Positions 16,661 through 31,783 are shown, counted from the first letter of the stretch. The stretch is DNA of 32,000 nt from Breznakia blatticola (GCF_004365815.1 NZ_SODD01000024.1:2185-34184), one strand, 5' to 3'. Made by a program: numbers and translations. Notes: generated from the letters alone by a model not told the origin.

Positions 16661-16663
16661 TGT

Positions 16664-16700
16664 AAAATGACAGCTGTTCCATTTCAGCTGTCATTTTATG
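16664..16700 (+). terminator. rho-independent terminator of the esterase gene
   Basis: Perfect 13-bp stem aaaatgacagctg (16664-16676) / cagctgtcatttt (16685-16697) with an 8-nt loop. It starts 4 nt after the stop codon. Confidence 0.8.
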
Positions 16701-16960: not shown

Positions 16961-18232
16961 TTATCCAAAAAATGACAATTGATCAATACTTTTAGTATTT
17001 TTCTTACTTTCATTTATTATCTTTTGTTCATTTTTCAGCAATTGAGAGAATTTCTCAGATATTTTTCTATATTTAACTAATCTTGGCTCAATATCTTTGC
17101 AAACAGTTTTTGCTTCTGAGATTTCCTCTTTTTCTGATACTGTTAATTTCTCATTTTTATATTGCTCTAGTGTATTAATTAAATCATTTATATTCTTTAG
17201 ATTTTTAACCATCATTTCCCCATTAATGACATAGAAAAACTTAACATACTTATTATTTAATAATAGTTGAATTGTATTCCTTAGAGTACCTGAGCTAACT
17301 TCTATTGCACCGTATCTATTTATAATAATTGGCTTAAATATTGACAATCCCCAATCCGCGACTTCAGCCATTTGTCTATCTTTTTGCATTTGTTGTTGCT
17401 GTCGTTTAAGCAATTCATCAACCTCAATTGTTTCTAATTCCCACTCAGGTTCTATTTTTACTCGGGGAGTTTGCTTGATAGTATAGATTTTTACATTTGT
17501 ATATTTGGGAGAGGATCTTAAATAATCAATTATTTCATTATCAACACCTTTCTTTGAATCTCCAATAACTATTCTTATATTTTGTTTTATTATTGATTTC
17601 AGGGATTCTTGAATGATTTCGGGAATTTCATTTTGTGTTCTCGAACCAGAAATAAAAACTGTTTTTACCCTTGATTTGTTCATTTTCATTGACTTCAATT
17701 CATTTTCTATAATGCCTGATTTTGCTTGGTATTTATCCGATATTAACAAAATTCTATCATTAGCAATTGCACTCCGCACATCAGCATAACTAAGTAAAGT
17801 GTTAATTGGTCTATCTGTTATGAAGATAACAGAAGAAGTACATTGTTTAAAATCGGAATATGAAACTGTAATATTGGGATTGCTTATCGTAAGTAACTTT
17901 TCATTTCCAATGATAAAATACAAGTTGTTTTTTCTAATGAACTTACTCGTTATTTCTTTGGACAACTTCTGCGACTTAGAAAAGAAAACTTTTATACCTC
18001 TTTGTGAAAGTTCTTCTAATCTAAGACTTAGTTTTATCCCTTGATTTAATTGGTTAGTGATTTTATTTCTTAAATCATCTGGCATAGAAATTTTGCTAAT
18101 GTGATCCCTCTCAATAAATTCATTAATGTTATAGTTTACAAGTTTATCTTTTTCTATATCATTTAATGTACTGTCCAACAAATCACTTTCTAAAGCTATA
18201 AGTATTTTTTCAATTGCACTATACTGTGACAT
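16961..18232 (-). CDS. DprA/SLOG-like protein (degenerate DprA-like N-terminal half, DUF2493/YpsA-type SLOG Rossmann module, coiled-coil tail)
   Basis: VFISGSRTQNEI...IRIVIGDSKKGVDNEIIDYL and later ADWGLSIF...SSGTLRNTIQLL follow the SLOG/DUF2493 pattern (GGR ... hGGAxGaD ... GT). The N-terminal GIKVFFSKSQKLSKEI...LYFIIGNEKLL resembles the DprA lead-in. Start ATG 18232 has GGAGGG upstream and lies 1 nt after the RecQ stop (TAG-T-ATG). Confidence 0.55.
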   Translation of the reverse strand: MSQYSAIEKILIALESDLLDSTLNDIEKDKLVNYNINEFIERDHISKISMPDDLRNKITNQLNQGIKLSLRLEELSQRGIKVFFSKSQKLSKEITSKFIRKNNLYFIIGNEKLLTISNPNITVSYSDFKQCTSSVIFITDRPINTLLSYADVRSAIANDRILLISDKYQAKSGIIENELKSMKMNKSRVKTVFISGSRTQNEIPEIIQESLKSIIKQNIRIVIGDSKKGVDNEIIDYLRSSPKYTNVKIYTIKQTPRVKIEPEWELETIEVDELLKRQQQQMQKDRQMAEVADWGLSIFKPIIINRYGAIEVSSGTLRNTIQLLLNNKYVKFFYVINGEMMVKNLKNINDLINTLEQYKNEKLTVSEKEEISEAKTVCKDIEPRLVKYRKISEKFSQLLKNEQKIINESKKNTKSIDQLSFFG

Positions 18233-18233
18233 A

Positions 18234-20288
18234 CTAATTCCCTCCTGTTTTAACGAGTGCAAATGGATAAACAACAGTTGCACCAGCCTTTAACAATTCA
18301 GACGCAATTACAGTAAATGTCCATCTAGAATCAACCATATCATCAACCAACAAAATTCTTTTCCCTTGAATATATGTTTTGTTTATAGAAATTGTATTTT
18401 GAATATTCTCTTGCTGAAATCCGGAACTCAATAGTGTTTTTTGCTCTTTACCTTCTGCGTTTTTCTTTACAGCATTAATATACTGGATATTCAAATCGTT
18501 CGCTAAAGCGACAGAAAAGTTAGTCACCAAATTAGGTCTTCTTATACTTGGTACAGATACTATTAAATTAATAGTATCAACAGCCTTCCGTCTCTTTAAA
18601 AAATTCACCGAATGATTAACTAATTTAGTTGAAAATACACAATCATCGTATTTTTCTTTTTTCACTAGTTGCCCAATCTCTGAATAATAATCATTAGATA
18701 ACACCCAGCCTTCTTGCATTACTTCATTATTTGGTATACGTGCGCCTGTTGACCATTGTTTTCTTGGGAGTATCTTTCCGTGTCTGTTCGTCATATATTT
18801 AGAAGCACTTTTATACGCATTCAAAGAAAAATCTGTCTTCATTACCTTATGACCTACACAATTTGCGCAAATCCCACACGACTCAGCAAAATCAGGTGCA
18901 TTTAATTCATCTGCTATAAATTTCATACTACATGAAGATGTCGTTAAGTATTCTTTCAACTTTTTTAACTCACTTTTTCTAGTTATATTGAGGTTTTCTT
19001 GTTTTATTCTTTCTTTCTCCTTATCAAAATGATTTGTCAAATTTGTACGATAATAAGACTTGTCTTTATAAATATAATCATGTACAAGCAAATAGTTTAA
19101 TCCAACTTTTACTTTTGATGCTTTTGCATTTATTCTAGAATACAAATCATAATATTTTATCCCATCCGTTGCATATGAAATAATTTCACTTAACAAATCA
19201 GGCTTAGAGCAGGTTTCTTCCATAAAATATGTAAGAATTTCTTCATCTTCCGCTCCATGCAATAGAATGGCATATGCTAATTGTCCGTCTCTACCTGCTC
19301 GACCGATTTGTTGATAATAGGCAATTAAATTTGAGGGTAGTTGATAATGTATTACAAATCTAATGTCAGATTTATCATACCCCATCCCCAACTTCACTGT
19401 GGCAACTAGAATTCGTATTTCTCCTTGATCAAACAGCTCAAGATTCCTCTGTGAAGCATTGGGTTCTAAACCCGAATGATAAGAAGCAACACTTAAATCG
19501 TTTTGGTTAAGAAATTCGGCAACATTATCACAATCTCTCTGTGTTAAACAATAAATAATTCCCTGACCCTTATTTAATTTCTCATTATCTTGTAGATTAT
19601 CAAGTATCCACGCTAGTCTTTCTTCACGAGTTTGCTTTGGATTTACTTGTATACTCAAATTATCTCTAATTAAATTACCTCTAACAATTTCTAAATCTTC
19701 TCCTAATTGATTTTTAATATCATTAATGACTCTATTATTTGCTGTTGCAGTTGTTCCTAATATGGATATATCAACTGGCAAGTTATCTAAAAGCTTTACA
19801 ATTCTTTGGTAATCAGGTCTAAAATCATGTCCCCAATCCGAAATAGAATGCGCTTCATCTACAACAAAGAGCTTTATGTTACTTATATTGTAAAAATTAC
19901 TCATAAATACTCCATTTGATAGTCTTTCAGGAGATATAATTAATGCATCATATCTATTAAGATCCTCATAAATTCGATCCCAATCATTTTTATTATCACT
20001 ATTAATTGTTACGATATTTAAACCAATTTTTTTTGCTGTGTCAATCTGATTCTTCATTAAAGACAATAATGGACTGATAATAATTGATGGTCCTGATCCA
20101 CGTTCTCTTAAAATTTTAGTAGCAATAAAATATACTATAGATTTTCCCCATCCTGTTCTTTGAACAACTAAAGTTTTTTTCTTCTCCAAAACCGAAACAA
20201 TTGCACTTAATTGGCCATCTCTAAATTCTGCATTTTCACCATATGTAGATTTTAATATTTGAATAGCTCTGTCCTTGTTATTTAACAC
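18234..20288 (-). CDS. RecQ-family DNA helicase fused to a C-terminal ComF/ComFC-type phosphoribosyltransferase-like domain
   Basis: RecQ motifs: FRDGQ, QRTGWGKS, VVDEAHSISDWGHDFRPDY, GTTATAN, YHSG, VATVKLGMGYDKSDIRFVIHYQLP, YYQQIGRAGRDG. Cys cluster CSMK...CGICANC. C-terminal ...SSGFQQENIQNTISIN...GKRILLVDDMVDSRWTFTV...AGATVVYPFALV matches the PRTase/ComF signature. GTG start with GGAGG 7 nt upstream. Confidence 0.85.
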   Translation of the reverse strand: MLNNKDRAIQILKSTYGENAEFRDGQLSAIVSVLEKKKTLVVQRTGWGKSIVYFIATKILRERGSGPSIIISPLLSLMKNQIDTAKKIGLNIVTINSDNKNDWDRIYEDLNRYDALIISPERLSNGVFMSNFYNISNIKLFVVDEAHSISDWGHDFRPDYQRIVKLLDNLPVDISILGTTATANNRVINDIKNQLGEDLEIVRGNLIRDNLSIQVNPKQTREERLAWILDNLQDNEKLNKGQGIIYCLTQRDCDNVAEFLNQNDLSVASYHSGLEPNASQRNLELFDQGEIRILVATVKLGMGYDKSDIRFVIHYQLPSNLIAYYQQIGRAGRDGQLAYAILLHGAEDEEILTYFMEETCSKPDLLSEIISYATDGIKYYDLYSRINAKASKVKVGLNYLLVHDYIYKDKSYYRTNLTNHFDKEKERIKQENLNITRKSELKKLKEYLTTSSCSMKFIADELNAPDFAESCGICANCVGHKVMKTDFSLNAYKSASKYMTNRHGKILPRKQWSTGARIPNNEVMQEGWVLSNDYYSEIGQLVKKEKYDDCVFSTKLVNHSVNFLKRRKAVDTINLIVSVPSIRRPNLVTNFSVALANDLNIQYINAVKKNAEGKEQKTLLSSGFQQENIQNTISINKTYIQGKRILLVDDMVDSRWTFTVIASELLKAGATVVYPFALVKTGGN

Positions 20289-20324
20289 ACTTTTTCCTCC
20301 ATTTCTTACTTTAAATATGCAAAC

Positions 20325-20333
20325 ATTATATCA
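20325..20333 (-). promoter_or_regulatory. extended -10 element (TGATATAAT) upstream of the RecQ-PRTase operon
   Basis: Minus-strand ccgTGaTATAATgtttgc sits about 35 nt before the GTG start. Only a weak -35 (TTAATA) was found. Confidence 0.45.
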
Positions 20334-20888
20334 CGGTAAGCAAGTGAATATTAAGAAGTTTCATCATTTAATAAAGACGAAAATAGTATCACATGATAGA
20401 AAAAAAGTTACTATCATTAATAGTATGATATTTTAGATTAACTAATCAAAAACAAGAGGATGTTTTGTCCCATAGAAAAACCCAATAACATAAAAATGTG
20501 CTTATTGATGTATCTTGAATAATTATAATGACTTAGCAATACTTATAACCGTGATTATAGAGAGTGTAAAATAAACTGTATAAGTCGAGAGTGTACGGCT
20601 CTGCTACACATTTTTTTATTATCTATTGCTATATAGACTGCTTCGACTTGCATTTTTGTTACCACTACATTTCGATAAACATCCACCTATGTCTCATACA
20701 ATTAGTAGTGCGCCATATCAACTATCTATAATTTCAGTATAATCTATGAAAATATCTCTGAGTTCTATATCTTCTTTATCAATTTGATACCAACATTTAT
20801 ACATTTCGCTTTTGCTACCTTTAGCTAATAAATCAAAGTTGGCATGCAAATACTTATTTGTATCAGCTGTTTATTGTAATTTAAAAGT

Positions 20889-21187
20889 GGACCACTTTCA
20901 TGGCATGTTGCCATTGAAAAAGGGACCACTTATTTTTTTATTCCGGTGTATGAAATAATATAATCCGGAGGTGAAGGAGTGATAAAACTAATGAAAAAAA
21001 ACGAGAGATTATTGTAAGCGTAAAATAACTAGCGCAACCTAAAAAGAACTAAGGTAACTCGTTTGAGTGTTATCTTTAGTCTTTTATTTTGGTCTTTTTT
21101 GCACATAGCATTCTTTGGATAAATCAGAGCTCGTTGGTAAAACATCAACTAGCTTAACATTGATGCTAGTATAAAAATAGGACCACT
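20889..21187. repeat. three direct copies of AAAA-N(1-2)-GGACCACT
   Basis: ggaccact occurs at 20889-20896, 20923-20930 and 21180-21187, each preceded by an A-run. The first two flank the small palindrome atggca-tgt-tgccat (20902-20916). The third lies just upstream of the IS3 orfA promoter and may mark the IS left end. Confidence 0.5.
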
Positions 21188-21641
21188 GAAACAGAGATTT
21201 TCCGACATTTGGTATAATGTAAGTAGATGGACGTACAGATAACTAGAGGAGGTGTTATCAATGTCAAAAGGCAAACAATACACTAAACAATTTAAGCTAG
21301 ATGCAGTTCAATATCATCTTAATCATCCAGAAATATCCATCAAGCAATGTGCCAATAACTTGAATATTGGATATAGTACATTAGGTAAATGGATTCAAGA
21401 GTTCAAAAATAGTGGCGATATTAATGTTCGTGGTAGTGGTAATTATGCAAGTGATGAAGCGAAAGAAAATGCAAGACTACGAAAAGAGTTGAAGGACACA
21501 AAAGATGCTTTAGAAATCTTAAAAAAAGCAATGAGCATACTGGTCGATTAACTGAGAGAAAATATGTTGCAACGAAAAAATCTAAAGAAGAAGACGCATC
21601 GATCTCTGTTAACAGTGTGCTAAGAATACTCGGTGTGTCAA
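21180..21641 (+). mobile_element. truncated IS3-family insertion sequence (left end, orfA, frameshift site, first ~40 codons of orfB)
   Basis: An orfA with HTH and leucine-zipper-like RLRKELKDTKDALEILKKA. A7G slippery run at 21521-21528. The -1 frame continues into ...ISVNSVLRILGVS, which is typical of an IS3 OrfB N-terminus, then degenerates. No DDE domain and no right end were found. Confidence 0.7.
21261..21551 (+). CDS. IS3-family transposase OrfA (HTH protein)
   Basis: MSKGKQYTKQFKLDAVQYH... is a typical IS3/IS150-group OrfA. ATG 21261 has GGAGG upstream, and the extended -10 TGGTATAAT lies at 21210-21218. Confidence 0.8.
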   Translation: MSKGKQYTKQFKLDAVQYHLNHPEISIKQCANNLNIGYSTLGKWIQEFKNSGDINVRGSGNYASDEAKENARLRKELKDTKDALEILKKAMSILVD

Positions 21642-21691
21642 ACATCAGAAAAGAGATTTGTAAACATCTAGTTATTTTTTTGTATTATTAA
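21521..21691 (+). pseudogene. remnant of IS3 transposase orfB (N-terminal fragment only)
   Basis: The -1 frame from the slippery site reads KKSNEHTGRLTERKYVATKKSKEEDASISVNSVLRILGVSNIRKEICKHLVIFLYY*. Similarity to OrfB ends near 21640. The catalytic DDE region is absent. Confidence 0.6.
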
Positions 21692-21717
21692 CAAATTATT
21701 GGATCATTATCATATTC

Positions 21718-22617
21718 TTATATATCATTCAATCTTTCTTTAACTGTTTCTAGTGTTGGTATTGATACATAACTCCCAATGGTTTCGGTAGATATTGAAG
21801 CTGCCATTGAACTATAGATAAGTGCTTGTCTAAGCGCAAATTCATTATGAATGCAATAAGCAAATGCACCATGAAAGATATCTCCTGCTCCTGTTGTATC
21901 TATTGTATTTGTTAGAAAAGCAGGCAAATGTATTATCTTTTCATTTTCCTGATAATAACATCCCTTATCTCCAAATGTTATTACTATACAATTTGGATTA
22001 AGTTTTGATAGTTTTTCAAATGCATCATTAATATCATCATTATTATCTGGATTTAATTCCCTATTACAGTATTGTTGGGCAAAGTCTTGCGAACACACTA
22101 AGTAATCTACTAATGTACACATCTCATGTTTTTCTTGGTTATATGATCCTGCATCCATCACTGTAATTGCATCACTATATTTTTTCATTGTTGGTAAGGC
22201 AACACTTAAGAAATGTCCATCTACTAAAATAACCTTAGGTTCACTATCAAAAGATGGAATATCTAATACTTCTTCTTTTTCATCATAAGTTACTATTGTT
22301 CGATTACCATTTACTTTATTTGTAATTATTGTACTTATTGGTGTTGAATATTCTTTAGATATCATCATTGAACTTAATTTAATACTTGTTTTACTATCGA
22401 GTTCTTTCATGATTTTATCACCATAAAAGTCTGTTCCTAGCCTTGATACTAAATATGTATCTTCATTCCATAATGAACATAGGGCTGCTGAATTAGCTGC
22501 AGGACCACCAATACATTCCATTTTTTCTTTTGTTTTATACTTCTTATTTTCTGATATTTCTTCTTCAATTAAAAATGTCACATCATAGACTGTTTGTCCT
22601 ATACATGCTATTGCCAT
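21718..22617 (-). CDS. PfkB-family carbohydrate kinase (ribokinase/1-phosphofructokinase-like)
   Basis: N-terminal IGQTVYDV...GGPAANSA and C-terminal DTTGAGDIFHGAFAY (PfkB signature 2). GGAGG RBS inside the end of the upstream gene. Confidence 0.85.
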   Translation of the reverse strand: MAIACIGQTVYDVTFLIEEEISENKKYKTKEKMECIGGPAANSAALCSLWNEDTYLVSRLGTDFYGDKIMKELDSKTSIKLSSMMISKEYSTPISTIITNKVNGNRTIVTYDEKEEVLDIPSFDSEPKVILVDGHFLSVALPTMKKYSDAITVMDAGSYNQEKHEMCTLVDYLVCSQDFAQQYCNRELNPDNNDDINDAFEKLSKLNPNCIVITFGDKGCYYQENEKIIHLPAFLTNTIDTTGAGDIFHGAFAYCIHNEFALRQALIYSSMAASISTETIGSYVSIPTLETVKERLNDI

Positions 22618-22619
22618 GA

Positions 22620-23228
22620 TTATCCTCCAATTATCTTATCTAATACTGTAAAGAGTTGCTTATATTCTATTTTATTATAATCTGTAACATCTAATTCTAC
22701 TAGTTGACCTAGTTGGAAAGTATCATATCCTCGATTTTTACATCTATCAATAAATACATCATATGTTAGTAATGCATCTGCTTGTGAACGGTCATTTAAT
22801 ACATCTCCTTTATGATAAGAATTCATTACATGTCCTAGATGACGATCATTAGCTAAATCTCTTGTTTTTTGTCTATCGTATAAAACATCTAAATCACCAA
22901 GTAAGCGAATTGTTAAAATAGAAAAATTATATTTATTTGCTAGTTCTTCTAATTTATCTTTTTGTTTATTACTAAAAGGATAATCAATAATTACATATTC
23001 ACTATTACTCATGGTTTTATCTAAAATAATATAAAAATCATTTAATGCTTGAATATTAACTTCTAACTTTTCATCATTTGTATTATAGCCATATTCATCC
23101 CAATACTTTTCTTTTAGTTCATCAAAAGATAACCATTTCATATTTTTATATTTATCTATAATCATTTTAGTAAGATATGATTTCCCTGTTCCTGGCAATC
23201 CTCCTACTAATACCATTACTTTATTCAT
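22620..23228 (-). CDS. P-loop NTPase / small-molecule kinase-like protein (AAA_33/zeta-toxin-like fold)
   Basis: Walker A VLVGGLPGTGKSYL at the N-terminus, a hydrophobic strand plus Asp (YVIIDYP), 202 aa. GGAGG RBS. Confidence 0.6.
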   Translation of the reverse strand: MNKVMVLVGGLPGTGKSYLTKMIIDKYKNMKWLSFDELKEKYWDEYGYNTNDEKLEVNIQALNDFYIILDKTMSNSEYVIIDYPFSNKQKDKLEELANKYNFSILTIRLLGDLDVLYDRQKTRDLANDRHLGHVMNSYHKGDVLNDRSQADALLTYDVFIDRCKNRGYDTFQLGQLVELDVTDYNKIEYKQLFTVLDKIIGG

Positions 23229-28521: not shown

Positions 28522-30741
28522 TTACGAAATAAATGTTGTTTCATTAGATAGTACTGCTAAATATTTTATATAATCAAATACATCTTCAACATCTACTCCA
28601 TTTTTTATCAAAGATAATGCTATCAATGAATACTCATTATACAAATCTGTTCCAAATATTGCACTATCATCTGTATTTATAGTAGTTTGAATATGATGCT
28701 TCGTTCCATCTTCTATATATTTTGAATTAAATTTAAATAATGGTAAATTAATATATTTTTTTACTGAAGATATCTTCTTATTTGATGATGGATTAGTTTC
28801 AATAACTATTCTTTTATTATATATTTTTTCCTTAATAATACCTTGAACATTTTTCACTGCTGTCATATATTGTTCTGTTGCAGTTATGCATAACTTTTCA
28901 TCACCCTTTTTTTGTTGTTTATAAGAGAGATATTTCTTATATAAATATTTAGCATTTTTATTCTTATTTGCTTGTTTCCATCTTGGATTATCATAATTTT
29001 TATCTGTTTTTGTACGATTCACTTCTTTAGTATCTATACTATTAGGATCATCACTACGTAAACTCATGCTATCTATATAGTTAGTCAGTTGTACAGTTTC
29101 TCCAAGTAATTCATATGAAAATCTATCAAACTCAGCTAATAGCTCTGCATAGATTGAATCCGTATTGCTTATATAGCTAAGTAGCCATGCTAAATCATCC
29201 ACATGTTTTTGTAAAGTTGTAATAATATAGTTTCTCTTAATCTTAAAATATTCGATGACATCAATACCTAAAGCAATTGCGTGACCTAGCCTATCTCCAG
29301 ACTTAAGATTAATAAATTCAATGCACTCATCAATAGCACGTATTCCACTAGCTAATGATGCAAACTCTTCCCCAACGTGATATGTTATTCCTAAATTATA
29401 ATATTTCCCTATCATTTTTCTATGTCTTCGAAATGTTGGTCCATATACTTCCGGCGGGCAATTTAACTCAAAATTTGCAGTGTCAATTCCAACAATATGA
29501 GGTTGCTCCCTACTTTTTCTCTTACTAGAAAAATATTGATCAATTTTTTTATCTTCCTTAAGTTTTCTTCTTACTTGAAAGTTCCGTACTTCGTCTTTCT
29601 GTATTTTGTGATCTTCCTTAATATAATGAATCACTAATTTATAATCTATCTTTTTAACATTAGGATCTCTTTTTTTATAGAAACTATAAACCTTTTCATT
29701 TGCATCATCTAGTTGGTTAATCATTTCATTAATATCACTTGTCTTTTTAGGTGCTATTCTGAATTCAACTTTATGTGTAATTTTATCACAATAATATTTG
29801 TCAAAAATGCCAATATACAATTTATCCTTTTGAGAATTTGGAATAAATAATTCCTTGATGTTTTCTGAATCTTTAAATTTAGAAAATCCTATCCCATTAT
29901 TGTCTTGCACAAACATTTGCCGGCATTTGCATAAATAGGAAATATATGAATTAGCTACTTTATAGCCTTCATAACTTAATTCATCTAAACGAATCATTCT
30001 AAAAAGATAGAAAAACAATAACACTTCATTTTTATGATGGTATTGAAAATCCTCAGTAGAGATAATATTTTTTTTATCCCATAAACATATTAGACCATCA
30101 ATAATGTTTTTTCCACCGTTCATATATGAATAACTTCCATTTTCAATAACCCTTATTAAAAAATCTCTATTATCAATATACTTAGCAATTCCAAACTTCC
30201 AGTTCAATACTTCGTTATACAGGTATGCTTTTAATCCAAGAATTCTAATTTGCATCTTTTCCATGGAATCTTTCATTTCTCTATTATGGGCGATCTTTTC
30301 CAATTTTTTTGCTTTCATTTTTTTTGTCGATAATGAATGCCAATTCATTTCCCAATTGTATCCAGATCCATTTAGATGCATATGATTATCACAAACCCCA
30401 ATGTCCTTCAAACATTTTTCAATCCTTACTTCATCGTGCTTAACAATAGGTTTGCAATTACAGTCAAATCCCTCACTCTCGGATAACTTTGCGCCGAATA
30501 TTATCCTTGGATCAACTTTATTTACACACCCATCCCATTCAAATAAATTATCAAAATCAACAAGTATCTGCGAATTTCTTTCGGATAATATTTTTTTTGA
30601 TACATGTATAAACAGATGTATTGGATTAAATGATTTAACATTCAAATCGTTCTCAATTTCGTTGATAATTGAATCAGACAACATTAATACTTCCTCAATA
30701 TTATACTCCTCTGGATATAGTTCCAAATATTTTTTACCCAC
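28522..30741 (-). CDS. large divergent adenosine/AMP-deaminase-fold metallohydrolase (RADAR RdrB-like)
   Basis: A full amidohydrolase/ADA motif set: DNH120MH122LNGS, VGID420TANFE, YH455VGE458E, RLGH487AIAL, IETNPSSN, INTD691D692SAIFG. The track start is GTG 30741 (weak RBS). The alternative ATG 30684 (MLSDS) has GAGGAAG 8 nt upstream. Confidence 0.8.
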   Translation of the reverse strand: MGKKYLELYPEEYNIEEVLMLSDSIINEIENDLNVKSFNPIHLFIHVSKKILSERNSQILVDFDNLFEWDGCVNKVDPRIIFGAKLSESEGFDCNCKPIVKHDEVRIEKCLKDIGVCDNHMHLNGSGYNWEMNWHSLSTKKMKAKKLEKIAHNREMKDSMEKMQIRILGLKAYLYNEVLNWKFGIAKYIDNRDFLIRVIENGSYSYMNGGKNIIDGLICLWDKKNIISTEDFQYHHKNEVLLFFYLFRMIRLDELSYEGYKVANSYISYLCKCRQMFVQDNNGIGFSKFKDSENIKELFIPNSQKDKLYIGIFDKYYCDKITHKVEFRIAPKKTSDINEMINQLDDANEKVYSFYKKRDPNVKKIDYKLVIHYIKEDHKIQKDEVRNFQVRRKLKEDKKIDQYFSSKRKSREQPHIVGIDTANFELNCPPEVYGPTFRRHRKMIGKYYNLGITYHVGEEFASLASGIRAIDECIEFINLKSGDRLGHAIALGIDVIEYFKIKRNYIITTLQKHVDDLAWLLSYISNTDSIYAELLAEFDRFSYELLGETVQLTNYIDSMSLRSDDPNSIDTKEVNRTKTDKNYDNPRWKQANKNKNAKYLYKKYLSYKQQKKGDEKLCITATEQYMTAVKNVQGIIKEKIYNKRIVIETNPSSNKKISSVKKYINLPLFKFNSKYIEDGTKHHIQTTINTDDSAIFGTDLYNEYSLIALSLIKNGVDVEDVFDYIKYLAVLSNETTFIS

Positions 30742-30847: not shown

Positions 30848-31783
30848 TTATTCATTAATAATCTCCATAATCTTTTCTTTAAATCTATCTTCCTTGGAAA
30901 GTCTTTCAATAAACTTTTTTAAGTCCTTAGTAACAGTTTTCTTAGGTGTATTAAGATGCTTTTCCCAATCTGTAAGTTCCTTTATATCATCCTTTTTTAG
31001 GTTTCCTTCATTAGCTCTTAAAAACTCAAGAATTCTTTTAGCCTTGGGCTTCTTTATACTTTCAACTCCTTTAGTGTCTACTGGAGCTAGAATATATTTC
31101 TGTACTGCTTCTAAATCATTATTTGAGAAAACATTCGCATACTTAATTTCCTCAGAATCTACAAATATGCTCTTATTATTTGTTATTGAATTTTTTTCGA
31201 TATAACTATTTATTCTTCTAAGGAAATATTCTAATTCAGATTCATTTTTGTTTGATCTTCTTTCAAATTGTAACCTGATTATTCTATCAATATCAAACAT
31301 ATTAGTAAAAACATAATATGGATCAGTATCTTCGTCAATTACTTTTGTCTTTAAAGTTTTGACTACATAATTTGACTTCCCTAAAAATGCGAAAGGATCA
31401 AGTTCATAAGTGCGCTTATCTATAAGTTCTGTTGAGTACCCGTTTTCTTCATCAAATAAACTATATAGATTATAATACTCCCTATATAGAAAATTAAAAT
31501 ACGTATCATTTGAATTTGTATCTTTATTTCCAAACAATACATTAGCTTTTCCTCCCAAAAATGGTATTTCAGTATAACAAATTTTATCAATAACTTCTTT
31601 TGATTCATCTTTAAAGTTACTTTGGTAACTATATAATTTCAAAGTATTATTATTCGATCTAATTACTCTAGGAATAATATAACCATTTAATAATCGTAAG
31701 TAGTCATCAAAGTTTCCATCATTAGAATCCTTTATTGATTTTAGATATAATTCTTGTAGAAGCAATGAGTATTTTACTTTCAT
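30848..31783 (-). CDS. hypothetical protein, 311 aa, soluble, Lys-rich helical C-terminus; first gene of the deaminase operon
   Basis: Long ORF in the same orientation, 106 nt upstream of the deaminase gene. No Walker A, no TM segments and no motif I recognise. No Shine-Dalgarno before the ATG at 31783. Confidence 0.55.
   Translation of the reverse strand: MKVKYSLLLQELYLKSIKDSNDGNFDDYLRLLNGYIIPRVIRSNNNTLKLYSYQSNFKDESKEVIDKICYTEIPFLGGKANVLFGNKDTNSNDTYFNFLYREYYNLYSLFDEENGYSTELIDKRTYELDPFAFLGKSNYVVKTLKTKVIDEDTDPYYVFTNMFDIDRIIRLQFERRSNKNESELEYFLRRINSYIEKNSITNNKSIFVDSEEIKYANVFSNNDLEAVQKYILAPVDTKGVESIKKPKAKRILEFLRANEGNLKKDDIKELTDWEKHLNTPKKTVTKDLKKFIERLSKEDRFKEKIMEIINE

Follow-up and report, generated by a model that had tools for sequence, protein, structure and literature searches.

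Organization of the locus

We analyzed a stretch of 32,000 nucleotides (nt) from the genome of Breznakia blatticola (GCF_004365815.1, NZ_SODD01000024.1:2185-34184), which is referred to here as the window, and focused on a pair of adjacent genes that lie on its minus strand and code for proteins of 684 and 423 amino acids (aa), respectively (Table 1). The product of the upstream gene, psyrT, joins a RecQ-like helicase to a phosphoribosyltransferase (PRTase) domain, as does the toxin of PsyrTA, alias RqlHI, a published toxin-antitoxin (TA) and anti-phage system (Sberro 2013; Russell & Mulvey 2015, PMC4670107; Millman 2022, bioRxiv 10.1101/2022.05.11.491447). The downstream gene, here called the partner gene, is annotated in B. 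blatticola as coding for a hypothetical protein.

The two genes are closely coupled. A single nucleotide separates the TAG stop codon of psyrT from the ATG of the partner, which lies immediately downstream on the same strand, and the GGAGG sequence preceding the partner start is located within the psyrT coding sequence. Both open reading frames (ORFs), the 684-aa product and the TAG-T-ATG junction with a ribosome binding site (RBS) inside the RecQ coding sequence had been described in an earlier interpretation of this DNA (the sequence-only reading), and all are borne out by the sequence. Upstream of psyrT, a scan for promoter consensus elements, which is the only basis of this call, retrieved a promoter-like site on the minus strand (20354-20325; TTAATA-18-TATAAT with a TG extension); the number of such sites was not above the shuffled expectation.

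Table 1. Features of the psyrT-partner locus and its borders, in window coordinates.
Feature	Position	Strand	Basis and details
psyrT/rqlH-type gene, 684 aa	18234..20288	(-)	ORF and profile matches; start GTG 20288-20286
RecQ-like superfamily 2 (SF2) helicase core	aa ~6-360 of the 684-aa protein	(-)	Pfam, TIGR00614, RecQ structures
DEAH box D144-E-A-H147	19848..19859	(-)	Read from translation; invariant in alignment
Cysteine cluster C453...C471-x2-C474-x2-C477, putative zinc site	18858..18932	(-)	Invariant in alignment; motif CGICANC
PRTase domain, aa ~521-684	18237..18728	(-)	comF, GntX and ShosT profiles
Phosphoribosyl pyrophosphate (PRPP)-binding loop LLVDDMVDSRWT in PRTase domain	18318..18356	(-)	LLVDD..S.W invariant
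psyrT start region	20286..20354	(-)	GGAGG 20300-20296, 7 nt before GTG; promoter-like site 20354-20325
Gene junction	18230..18245	(-)	GGAGG 18245-18241, TAG stop 18236-18234, T 18233, ATG 18232-18230
Variant psyrA/rqlI-type partner gene, 423 aa, presumed antitoxin	16961..18232	(-)	ORF; start ATG 18232-18230
Partner N-terminal half, aa 1-168: helical domain, then degenerate DprA-type Rossmann remnant without GGxxGxD	17729..18232	(-)	hhalign
Partner C-terminal SLOG-type domain, aa 187-347; motifs FISGSR, GDSxKGVD, SSGTLRN	17192..17674	(-)	Invariant residues, model
Partner C-terminal helical tail, aa 348-423, with one long helix aa 383-414	16964..17191	(-)	AlphaFold secondary structure
Bidirectional terminator-like hairpin between convergent esterase gene and operon	16661..16700	.	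Consensus scan
IS3-family orfA remnant (HTH_Tnp_1), no intact orfB, at upstream edge of insertion	21252..21551	(+)	Pfam PF01527, E=3.8e-10

The upstream gene codes for a full-length PsyrT

A PADLOC search, one of the checks proposed in the sequence-only reading, matched the 684-aa protein to the PsyrT profile (PDLC03928) with E=3.2e-223 over aa 3-682, corresponding to model positions 3-685 out of 689. Because this match extends from end to end, the gene is identified by its sequence as a bona fide PsyrT, alias RqlH. The helicase core was recovered by Pfam (DEAD, E=4e-26; Helicase_C, E=8e-22) and by the TIGR00614 recQ_fam model (283.7 bits, exceeding the cut-off of 219.8), and in a profile comparison the E. 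coli RecQ structure 1oyw aligned to aa 6-346. The protein failed both the canonical recQ equivalog TIGR01389 (316.5 bits versus a cut-off of 640.2) and the recQ model NF008279 (235.8 bits versus 1015). Since the RecQ structures match aa 6-346 only, no RQC or HRDC region is detected in the protein, and the Pfam RecQ_Zn_bind model gave a weak match (E=0.029).

The PRTase part was matched by the TIGR00201 comF model (E=1.7e-8, aa 521-680), by the GntX model (E=1e-7) and by PADLOC ShosT (E=1.3e-8), the latter through the PRTase portion only (aa 572-682). Scores against the generic models were low, with 22.4 bits for Pfam Pribosyltran (cut-off 26.3) and 34.7 bits for TIGR00201, which failed its curated cut-off of 233.55. 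In an alignment of the window protein with five homologues, from Enterococcus, Basilea, E. coli, Nostoc and a haloarchaeon, the invariant residues included K49 of the Walker A motif, D144-H147, and the cysteines C453, C471, C474 and C477, as well as L647, V648, D649, D650, S654 and W656 of the PRPP-binding loop. The complete RecQ core with its DEAH box, the CGICANC motif and the ComFC-type PRTase domain that the sequence-only reading had recognized are thus all present, the last of them weak against generic models though invariant in its PRPP loop.

In E. coli, RqlH alone was found to elicit an SOS response, filamentation and mutagenesis; the effect needs the PRTase domain, and the substitution D663A abolishes RqlH toxicity (PMC4670107). 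RqlH D663 is the equivalent of an aspartate in the PRPP loop of the window protein.

The partner is related to PsyrA in its N-terminal half

The 423-aa partner matched no Pfam or NCBIfam model and no ShosA profile in PADLOC, and the PADLOC PsyrA profile returned only 15.7 bits (E=0.0015, aa 46-115). Canonical PsyrA proteins encoded on plasmids of E. coli and Nostoc scored 577 and 470 bits, respectively, on the same profile, and both carry PF02481 and PF18306. A homology search with the partner yielded 49 matches when clustered at 90%, and the 1.84 billion clusters of 50% identity contained about 16 full-length representatives; the members belong to Enterococcus, Leuconostoc and Basilea or come from metagenomes, all of them without a Pfam domain. 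Scanning all 34 members of the partner family with Pfam gave scattered weak matches only, PF02481 appearing in 3 of the 34 (best E=0.0089), and the best match of the family profile among PDB sequences (E=0.57) was judged spurious. The family has 47 invariant positions, all of which are kept in the 423-aa protein.

More was learned from structure prediction and profile-profile alignment. An AlphaFold model of the whole partner reached a predicted local distance difference test (pLDDT) score of 88.5, and its best fold match in the PDB, as found by Foldseek, was ShosA (8zva, E=2.7e-5), followed by the SLOG domain of ThsA, YpsA and DprA. We then compared the partner family profile, using hhalign, with an alignment of 29 canonical PsyrA sequences collected from genome loci. 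Residues 4-168 of the partner aligned to canonical PsyrA positions 19-236 with a probability of 98% (E=8e-14), and a comparison with the single E. coli PsyrA gave a probability of 93%. Within this N-terminal half, the segment that holds the glycine-rich VSGGArGVD motif in canonical PsyrA, together with the next helix, is deleted.

The C-terminal half (aa 187-347) aligned with the motif region of PsyrA only at E about 0.1. When modeled alone it formed a complete SLOG-type Rossmann domain (AlphaFold, pLDDT 93.2), whose Foldseek matches in the PDB were the SLOG domain of ThsA, LOG, YpsA and a molybdenum cofactor (MoCo) carrier protein, and which also matched viral proteins named YpsA, DUF2493 or DprA-like. 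As the first half aligns to PsyrA and the second models as a SLOG fold, the partner is best described, on these predictions, as a protein of four parts: a helical domain shared with the PsyrA N-terminus, what is left of a degenerate DprA domain, an intact SLOG domain distinct from it, and a helical tail. We also considered that the SLOG domain might have arisen recently by duplication of the DprA domain of PsyrA, an idea left unsupported by an hhalign match that is confined to the motif region.

The LOG motif reads PGGxGTxxE and includes the catalytic glutamate. Since N319, an invariant asparagine of the partner family, sits at the position of this glutamate in an alignment by eye, the C-terminal domain seems less likely to act as a LOG-like hydrolase. 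About 1000 relatives of this domain were found, mostly stand-alone proteins of ~200 aa that share the pattern SGS...GDAxGxD...KD...SxGTxxN. No Pfam model covers the domain in these relatives; 6 of 49 match DUF7211 elsewhere in the protein, and there are a few weak DprA or YpsA Pfam matches. In Aerococcus (L005, 6001-7785), a 237-aa protein consists of the SLOG half and tail of the partner only, with no PsyrT nearby and with a gene for a 350-aa protein starting 18 nt after it. This gene pair may represent a different two-gene module that uses the same SLOG domain.

The sequence-only reading had described the partner as a SLOG/DUF2493-type, DprA-like protein and had suggested profile searches for all three domains of the pair. 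Those searches recovered the RecQ core and the PRTase but no Pfam or NCBIfam family for the partner, so that the proposed class holds at the level of fold and superfamily and not at the level of sequence; what had been missed is that the partner is a non-standard PsyrA.

Related pairs are found in defense islands and mobile contexts

In Enterococcus, Basilea and Leuconostoc, a full-length variant partner immediately follows a PsyrT gene (E=1e-213 to 1e-227) after a gap of 1 nt. The same gap is kept in five loci other than that of the window, namely these three pairs and two decayed loci described below; a pair on one metagenome contig has a gap of 6 nt. Close relatives of the variant pair sit in defense islands or mobile contexts (Gabija, Qat and Mokosh-like). 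The Enterococcus pair adjoins QatB, QatC and QatD together with a KAP NTPase, the Leuconostoc pair adjoins GajA (E=2e-225), GajB (E=3e-188) and a MobL relaxase, and the pair on the metagenome contig adjoins an MkoC-like helicase.

In the two decayed loci the toxin gene is damaged and the partner is intact. PsyrT is split into ORFs of 414 and 231 aa in Enterococcus hulanensis (L091, 4732-8272), near HicAB and an integrase, and is reduced in the other locus (L094, 6724-8260) to a 91-aa PRTase remnant that is directly followed by the partner. Such a pattern would be expected if the partner is an antitoxin.

To place these pairs within the wider family, along the lines of a survey of RecQ-PRTase fusions and their neighbors that had been called for earlier, species-representative genomes were scanned for PsyrT, giving at least 599 PsyrT-like genes, and 80 loci were retrieved. 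Partners were called by hidden Markov model (HMM) searches of stop-to-stop ORFs, first-start ORF calling being unreliable in high-GC loci; a search with the C-terminal half of the toxin returned mostly gene fragments and was left out of the survey. Canonical PsyrA was present in 31 of the 80 loci, directly downstream of PsyrT in all but one (L016). The remaining 49, mostly from Actinobacteria, had no PsyrA partner, as in M. smegmatis, and the variant partner was found in none of these 49.

In a neighbor-joining tree, the PsyrTs that have a variant partner formed one clade, with 50-61% identity to the window protein (43% or less for all other PsyrTs), and this clade was sister to Firmicutes PsyrTs with canonical partners. 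Because the variant-paired PsyrTs group in this manner beside the canonical-paired ones, the tree fits a single remodeling of the partner within one Firmicutes lineage, and these sequence relationships show co-evolution of toxin and variant partner.

Other arrangements were seen as well. On an E. coli IncF plasmid (NZ_OX030731.1; L008, 700-10121), a canonical PsyrTA pair interrupts a type I restriction-modification operon, with the S-subunit gene on one side of it and the R-subunit gene on the other. Two metagenome-assembled genomes (MAGs), one of a member of the Bacteroidetes (L044, 7054-9148) and one of the Rhodothermales (L056, 7079-9130), have a PsyrT followed by two consecutive PsyrA-like ORFs, which score about 340-350 bits and 187-193 bits. 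A Halomicrobium plasmid (L010, 3977-6839) carries an archaeal full-length PsyrT homologue of 38% identity, without PsyrA and with a DUF6735 protein downstream.

Genes around the pair

The pair is flanked by a convergent esterase gene on one side and, on the other, by about 960 nt of non-coding DNA and then a truncated IS3 element. The IS3 scar, which had been noted previously, is real and contains an orfA ORF only (Table 1). In this upstream region (20289-21720) the non-coding DNA leads into orfA, and of orfB apparently only the first ~100 nt are left, ending against a PfkB kinase gene; the 1.4-kb region upstream of psyrT gave no plasmid match in a blastn search. Sugar-utilization operons are found on both sides, with phosphotransferase system (PTS) components, SIS-domain isomerases, a PfkB kinase, a class II aldolase, and GntR and PRD regulators.

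Within one of these operons, between the PfkB kinase and class II aldolase genes, lies a gene (22620-23228, minus strand) for a 202-aa AAA_33/Zeta_toxin-like P-loop kinase; at 25.3% GC (guanine plus cytosine) it is the most AT-rich gene of the window, and it had no PADLOC match. Further away, a 739-aa protein (28522-30741, minus strand) resembles adenosine deaminases at its C-terminus (Pfam A_deaminase, aa 640-707) and matches PADLOC RdrB, the RADAR deaminase, with E=3.6e-29 over aa 364-708. The 311-aa ORF upstream of it (30848-31783, minus strand) had no Pfam or PADLOC match. We rejected these two genes as a RADAR system: no RdrA-like match was obtained, and the sole other contig with the gene ends 150 nt upstream.

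A probable TA module of the PsyrTA/RqlHI type

Taken together, the family identity, domain anatomy, gene coupling geometry, intact catalytic motifs, partial PsyrA homology and genomic association described above lead us to propose, with a probability of roughly 85%, that the locus is a two-gene PsyrTA/RqlHI TA module of the anti-phage kind, which was probably acquired as accessory DNA between the sugar-utilization operons of B. blatticola. In this organism, toxicity, its neutralization, the trigger and anti-phage activity would follow by analogy with studied members of the family. Millman et al. reported PsyrTA among the two-gene TA systems that confer phage resistance, with a DprA-like antitoxin and a toxin with a PRTase domain, and were unable to transform a psyrA deletion (bioRxiv 10.1101/2022.05.11.491447). 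In E. coli, RqlI co-immunoprecipitates with RqlH only if the PRTase domain is present, and the N-terminus of RqlI is required for antitoxin function (PMC4670107).

By analogy with E. coli RqlHI, the upstream gene would code for the toxin, in which a RecQ-like 3'-5' helicase is joined to a PRTase domain that binds PRPP, and the translationally coupled downstream gene for an antitoxin that attaches to the PRTase domain and silences it. Infection may free the toxin, either through loss of a labile antitoxin or through its titration by a phage-derived nucleic acid or ligand, as envisaged in the RqlHI and ShosTA literature. The free toxin could then cause DNA damage and replication arrest that depend on PRPP and on the PRTase, accompanied by the SOS response and filamentation, and the infection would be aborted. 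Comparison of the two partner types suggests a division of labor within the antitoxin. The PsyrA-like N-terminal half would be the toxin-binding adaptor, since it is conserved in both partner types and the literature requires it for antitoxin function; the Rossmann module, being exchangeable between the two types, is a candidate sensor, and in the window protein this sensing or ligand-binding part would be the second, intact SLOG domain.

Several observations weigh against this interpretation. On the PsyrA profile the partner falls short (15.7 bits versus 470-577 for canonical PsyrA), and a Pfam scan found neither PF02481 (DNA_processg_A) nor PF18306 in the 423-aa protein. As the PsyrA profile and DNA_processg_A both fail, an antitoxin function is presumed for the partner from its position, its partial homology and the pattern of toxin decay. 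In addition, many PsyrT homologues, mostly actinobacterial, have no partner, which implies that the helicase-PRTase is harmless in some settings. The neighbors of the pair in the window are metabolic genes, the sole other defense-like gene being that of the RdrB-like deaminase 8 kb away, so that it is chiefly the relatives that reveal the pair as accessory. Base composition gives no mark of foreignness either: GC content is 31.4% in the helicase gene and 28.1% in the partner gene, with a window mean of 31.9%. We accordingly dropped base composition as an argument for foreign origin; the AT-richness pointed out in the sequence-only reading is not distinctive.

The alternative that survives best is that a helicase and its regulatory partner maintain the cell's own DNA (in repair, recombination or replication restart) and are toxic only when unbalanced, without forming a dedicated defense or addiction module. 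A cooperative beneficial function of RqlH and RqlI on bacterial DNA was proposed by Russell and Mulvey (PMC4670107), and the metabolic neighbors in the window, along with the 49 of 80 PsyrT-like loci that lack a PsyrA partner, agree with it. We nevertheless give this possibility a low probability. The protein does not pass the recQ equivalog cut-off (316 versus 640 bits) and resembles RecQ structures in the core only, with no RQC or HRDC detected; the variant pair is patchy, with about 16 clusters at 50% identity; its relatives reside in defense islands or mobile contexts; the toxin is decayed in some loci that keep the partner; and anti-phage activity has been published for the PsyrTA family. 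The preference of the sequence-only reading for a conflict or DNA-surveillance module over a housekeeping RecQ agrees with the full-length PsyrT match, with the failed equivalog and with the placement of the relatives in defense islands.

That the pair is an inactive relic, a decaying and functionless remnant of a mobile element, could be suspected from the truncated IS3 and non-coding DNA that adjoin it and from the decayed copies in relatives. In the window, however, both ORFs have their full length, the residues invariant in the toxin family and the 47 invariant positions of the partner family are kept, and the RBS and 1-nt coupling are intact, which makes a relic very improbable. The slightest chance of all is left to a competence module that would process incoming single-stranded DNA (ssDNA) in natural transformation through ComFA-like, ComFC-like and DprA-like parts: ComF and GntX are the best non-defense matches of the PRTase, the partner fold is related to DprA and the analogy is present in the literature, but the ComF score is far under its cut-off, the helicase is of the RecQ and not the ComFA type, the partner has no DprA Pfam domain and only a DprA-like remnant devoid of the glycine-rich motif, no competence genes are found nearby in the window, and TA and defense activity has been demonstrated for the PsyrTA family.

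Returning to the TA module, we also considered whether antitoxin sensing has changed in the Firmicutes sub-lineage to which the window pair belongs. The DprA-type ssDNA-binding domain would have been disabled and a different SLOG domain recruited, one that binds a nucleotide-derived small molecule rather than ssDNA; the ligand could, for example, be made by the PRTase or be a metabolite that phages induce. We regard this scenario as unlikely. If true, it would describe a PsyrTA with a new trigger logic, and Gram-positives reported as having "RqlH only" would sometimes hold a cryptic, unrecognized RqlI.

Implications for the annotation of defense systems

Because the variant antitoxin scores far under canonical PsyrA and has none of the canonical Pfam domains, automated defense annotation may miss the pair or report an orphan PsyrT. 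Earlier work described RqlI as missing in most Gram-positive taxa; in contrast, at least some Firmicutes homologues of RqlH have a tightly coupled partner.

Comparison with known systems

The ComFA/ComFC/DprA machinery shares three domain types with the window pair (a helicase, a ComF-type PRTase and a DprA-related Rossmann fold), and differs from it in that the window proteins score far under the family cut-offs, have a RecQ-type helicase and are encoded in a window with no competence genes nearby. Canonical RecQ, as represented by E. coli RecQ and TIGR01389, has the same catalytic core (aa 6-346 of the window protein), which passes the recQ_fam cut-off; different are the failed equivalog cut-off, the weak zinc-binding match and the C-terminal domain, which is a PRTase in the window protein. 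With the SLOG sensors (ThsA of Thoeris, LOG, YpsA and DUF2493 proteins) the partner shares its C-terminal fold and a comparable pattern of glycine- and serine-rich loops, although TM-scores are only about 0.5-0.6 and the domain is not a member of any Pfam SLOG family at the sequence level.

ShosTA comes closer. Its toxin is PRTase-based, its antitoxin has a DprA/SLOG fold, and TA and abortive-infection logic are common to both systems. Toxicity of ShosTA depends on PRPP binding; ShosA forms a DprA-like dimer able to bind both ssDNA and RecA, and proposals for the trigger include several of phage origin (PMC11961720, PMC12961424). Rousset et al. 2022 linked a DprA-PRTase defense pair, named DprA-PPRT, to the antitoxins of shosTA and rqlHI (PMC9122126). 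ShosT, however, has no helicase and pairs its PRTase with a pyrophosphatase domain, and its profile matches only the PRTase portion of the window protein. ShosA has an intact DprA domain, whereas the N-terminal half of the window partner lacks an intact motif, and the likeness between the two antitoxins is at the fold level only.

The sequence-only reading saw in the locus a new merger, with RecQ, fused to the PRTase, in the place of ComFA. This does not hold, since the same architecture is that of the published PsyrTA/RqlHI, and the analogy with ComF and DprA in competence was already drawn in the 2015 discussion (PMC4670107). Relative to PsyrTA/RqlHI, the window partner differs in lacking GGxxGxD in its DprA-type domain and the C-terminal part of PsyrA, and in carrying instead a distinct SLOG domain and a helical tail, as reflected in its score of 15.7 bits versus 470-577. 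The likenesses are a full-length PsyrT toxin with RecQ-like helicase, four-cysteine cluster and PRTase (E=3.2e-223), a partner with a DprA/SLOG Rossmann fold (Foldseek) whose N-terminal half is homologous to PsyrA, the association of relatives with defense islands, and the order of toxin followed by a nearly abutting partner, which matches the published arrangement in which rqlH always precedes rqlI and the genes are close or overlapping (PMC4670107). The architecture of the locus is thus already described as PsyrTA/RqlHI, has entries in PADLOC (PsyrT/PsyrA) and DefenseFinder (PsyrTA), and is no new system, and the new part is limited to a rare, rearranged antitoxin architecture that standard models miss.

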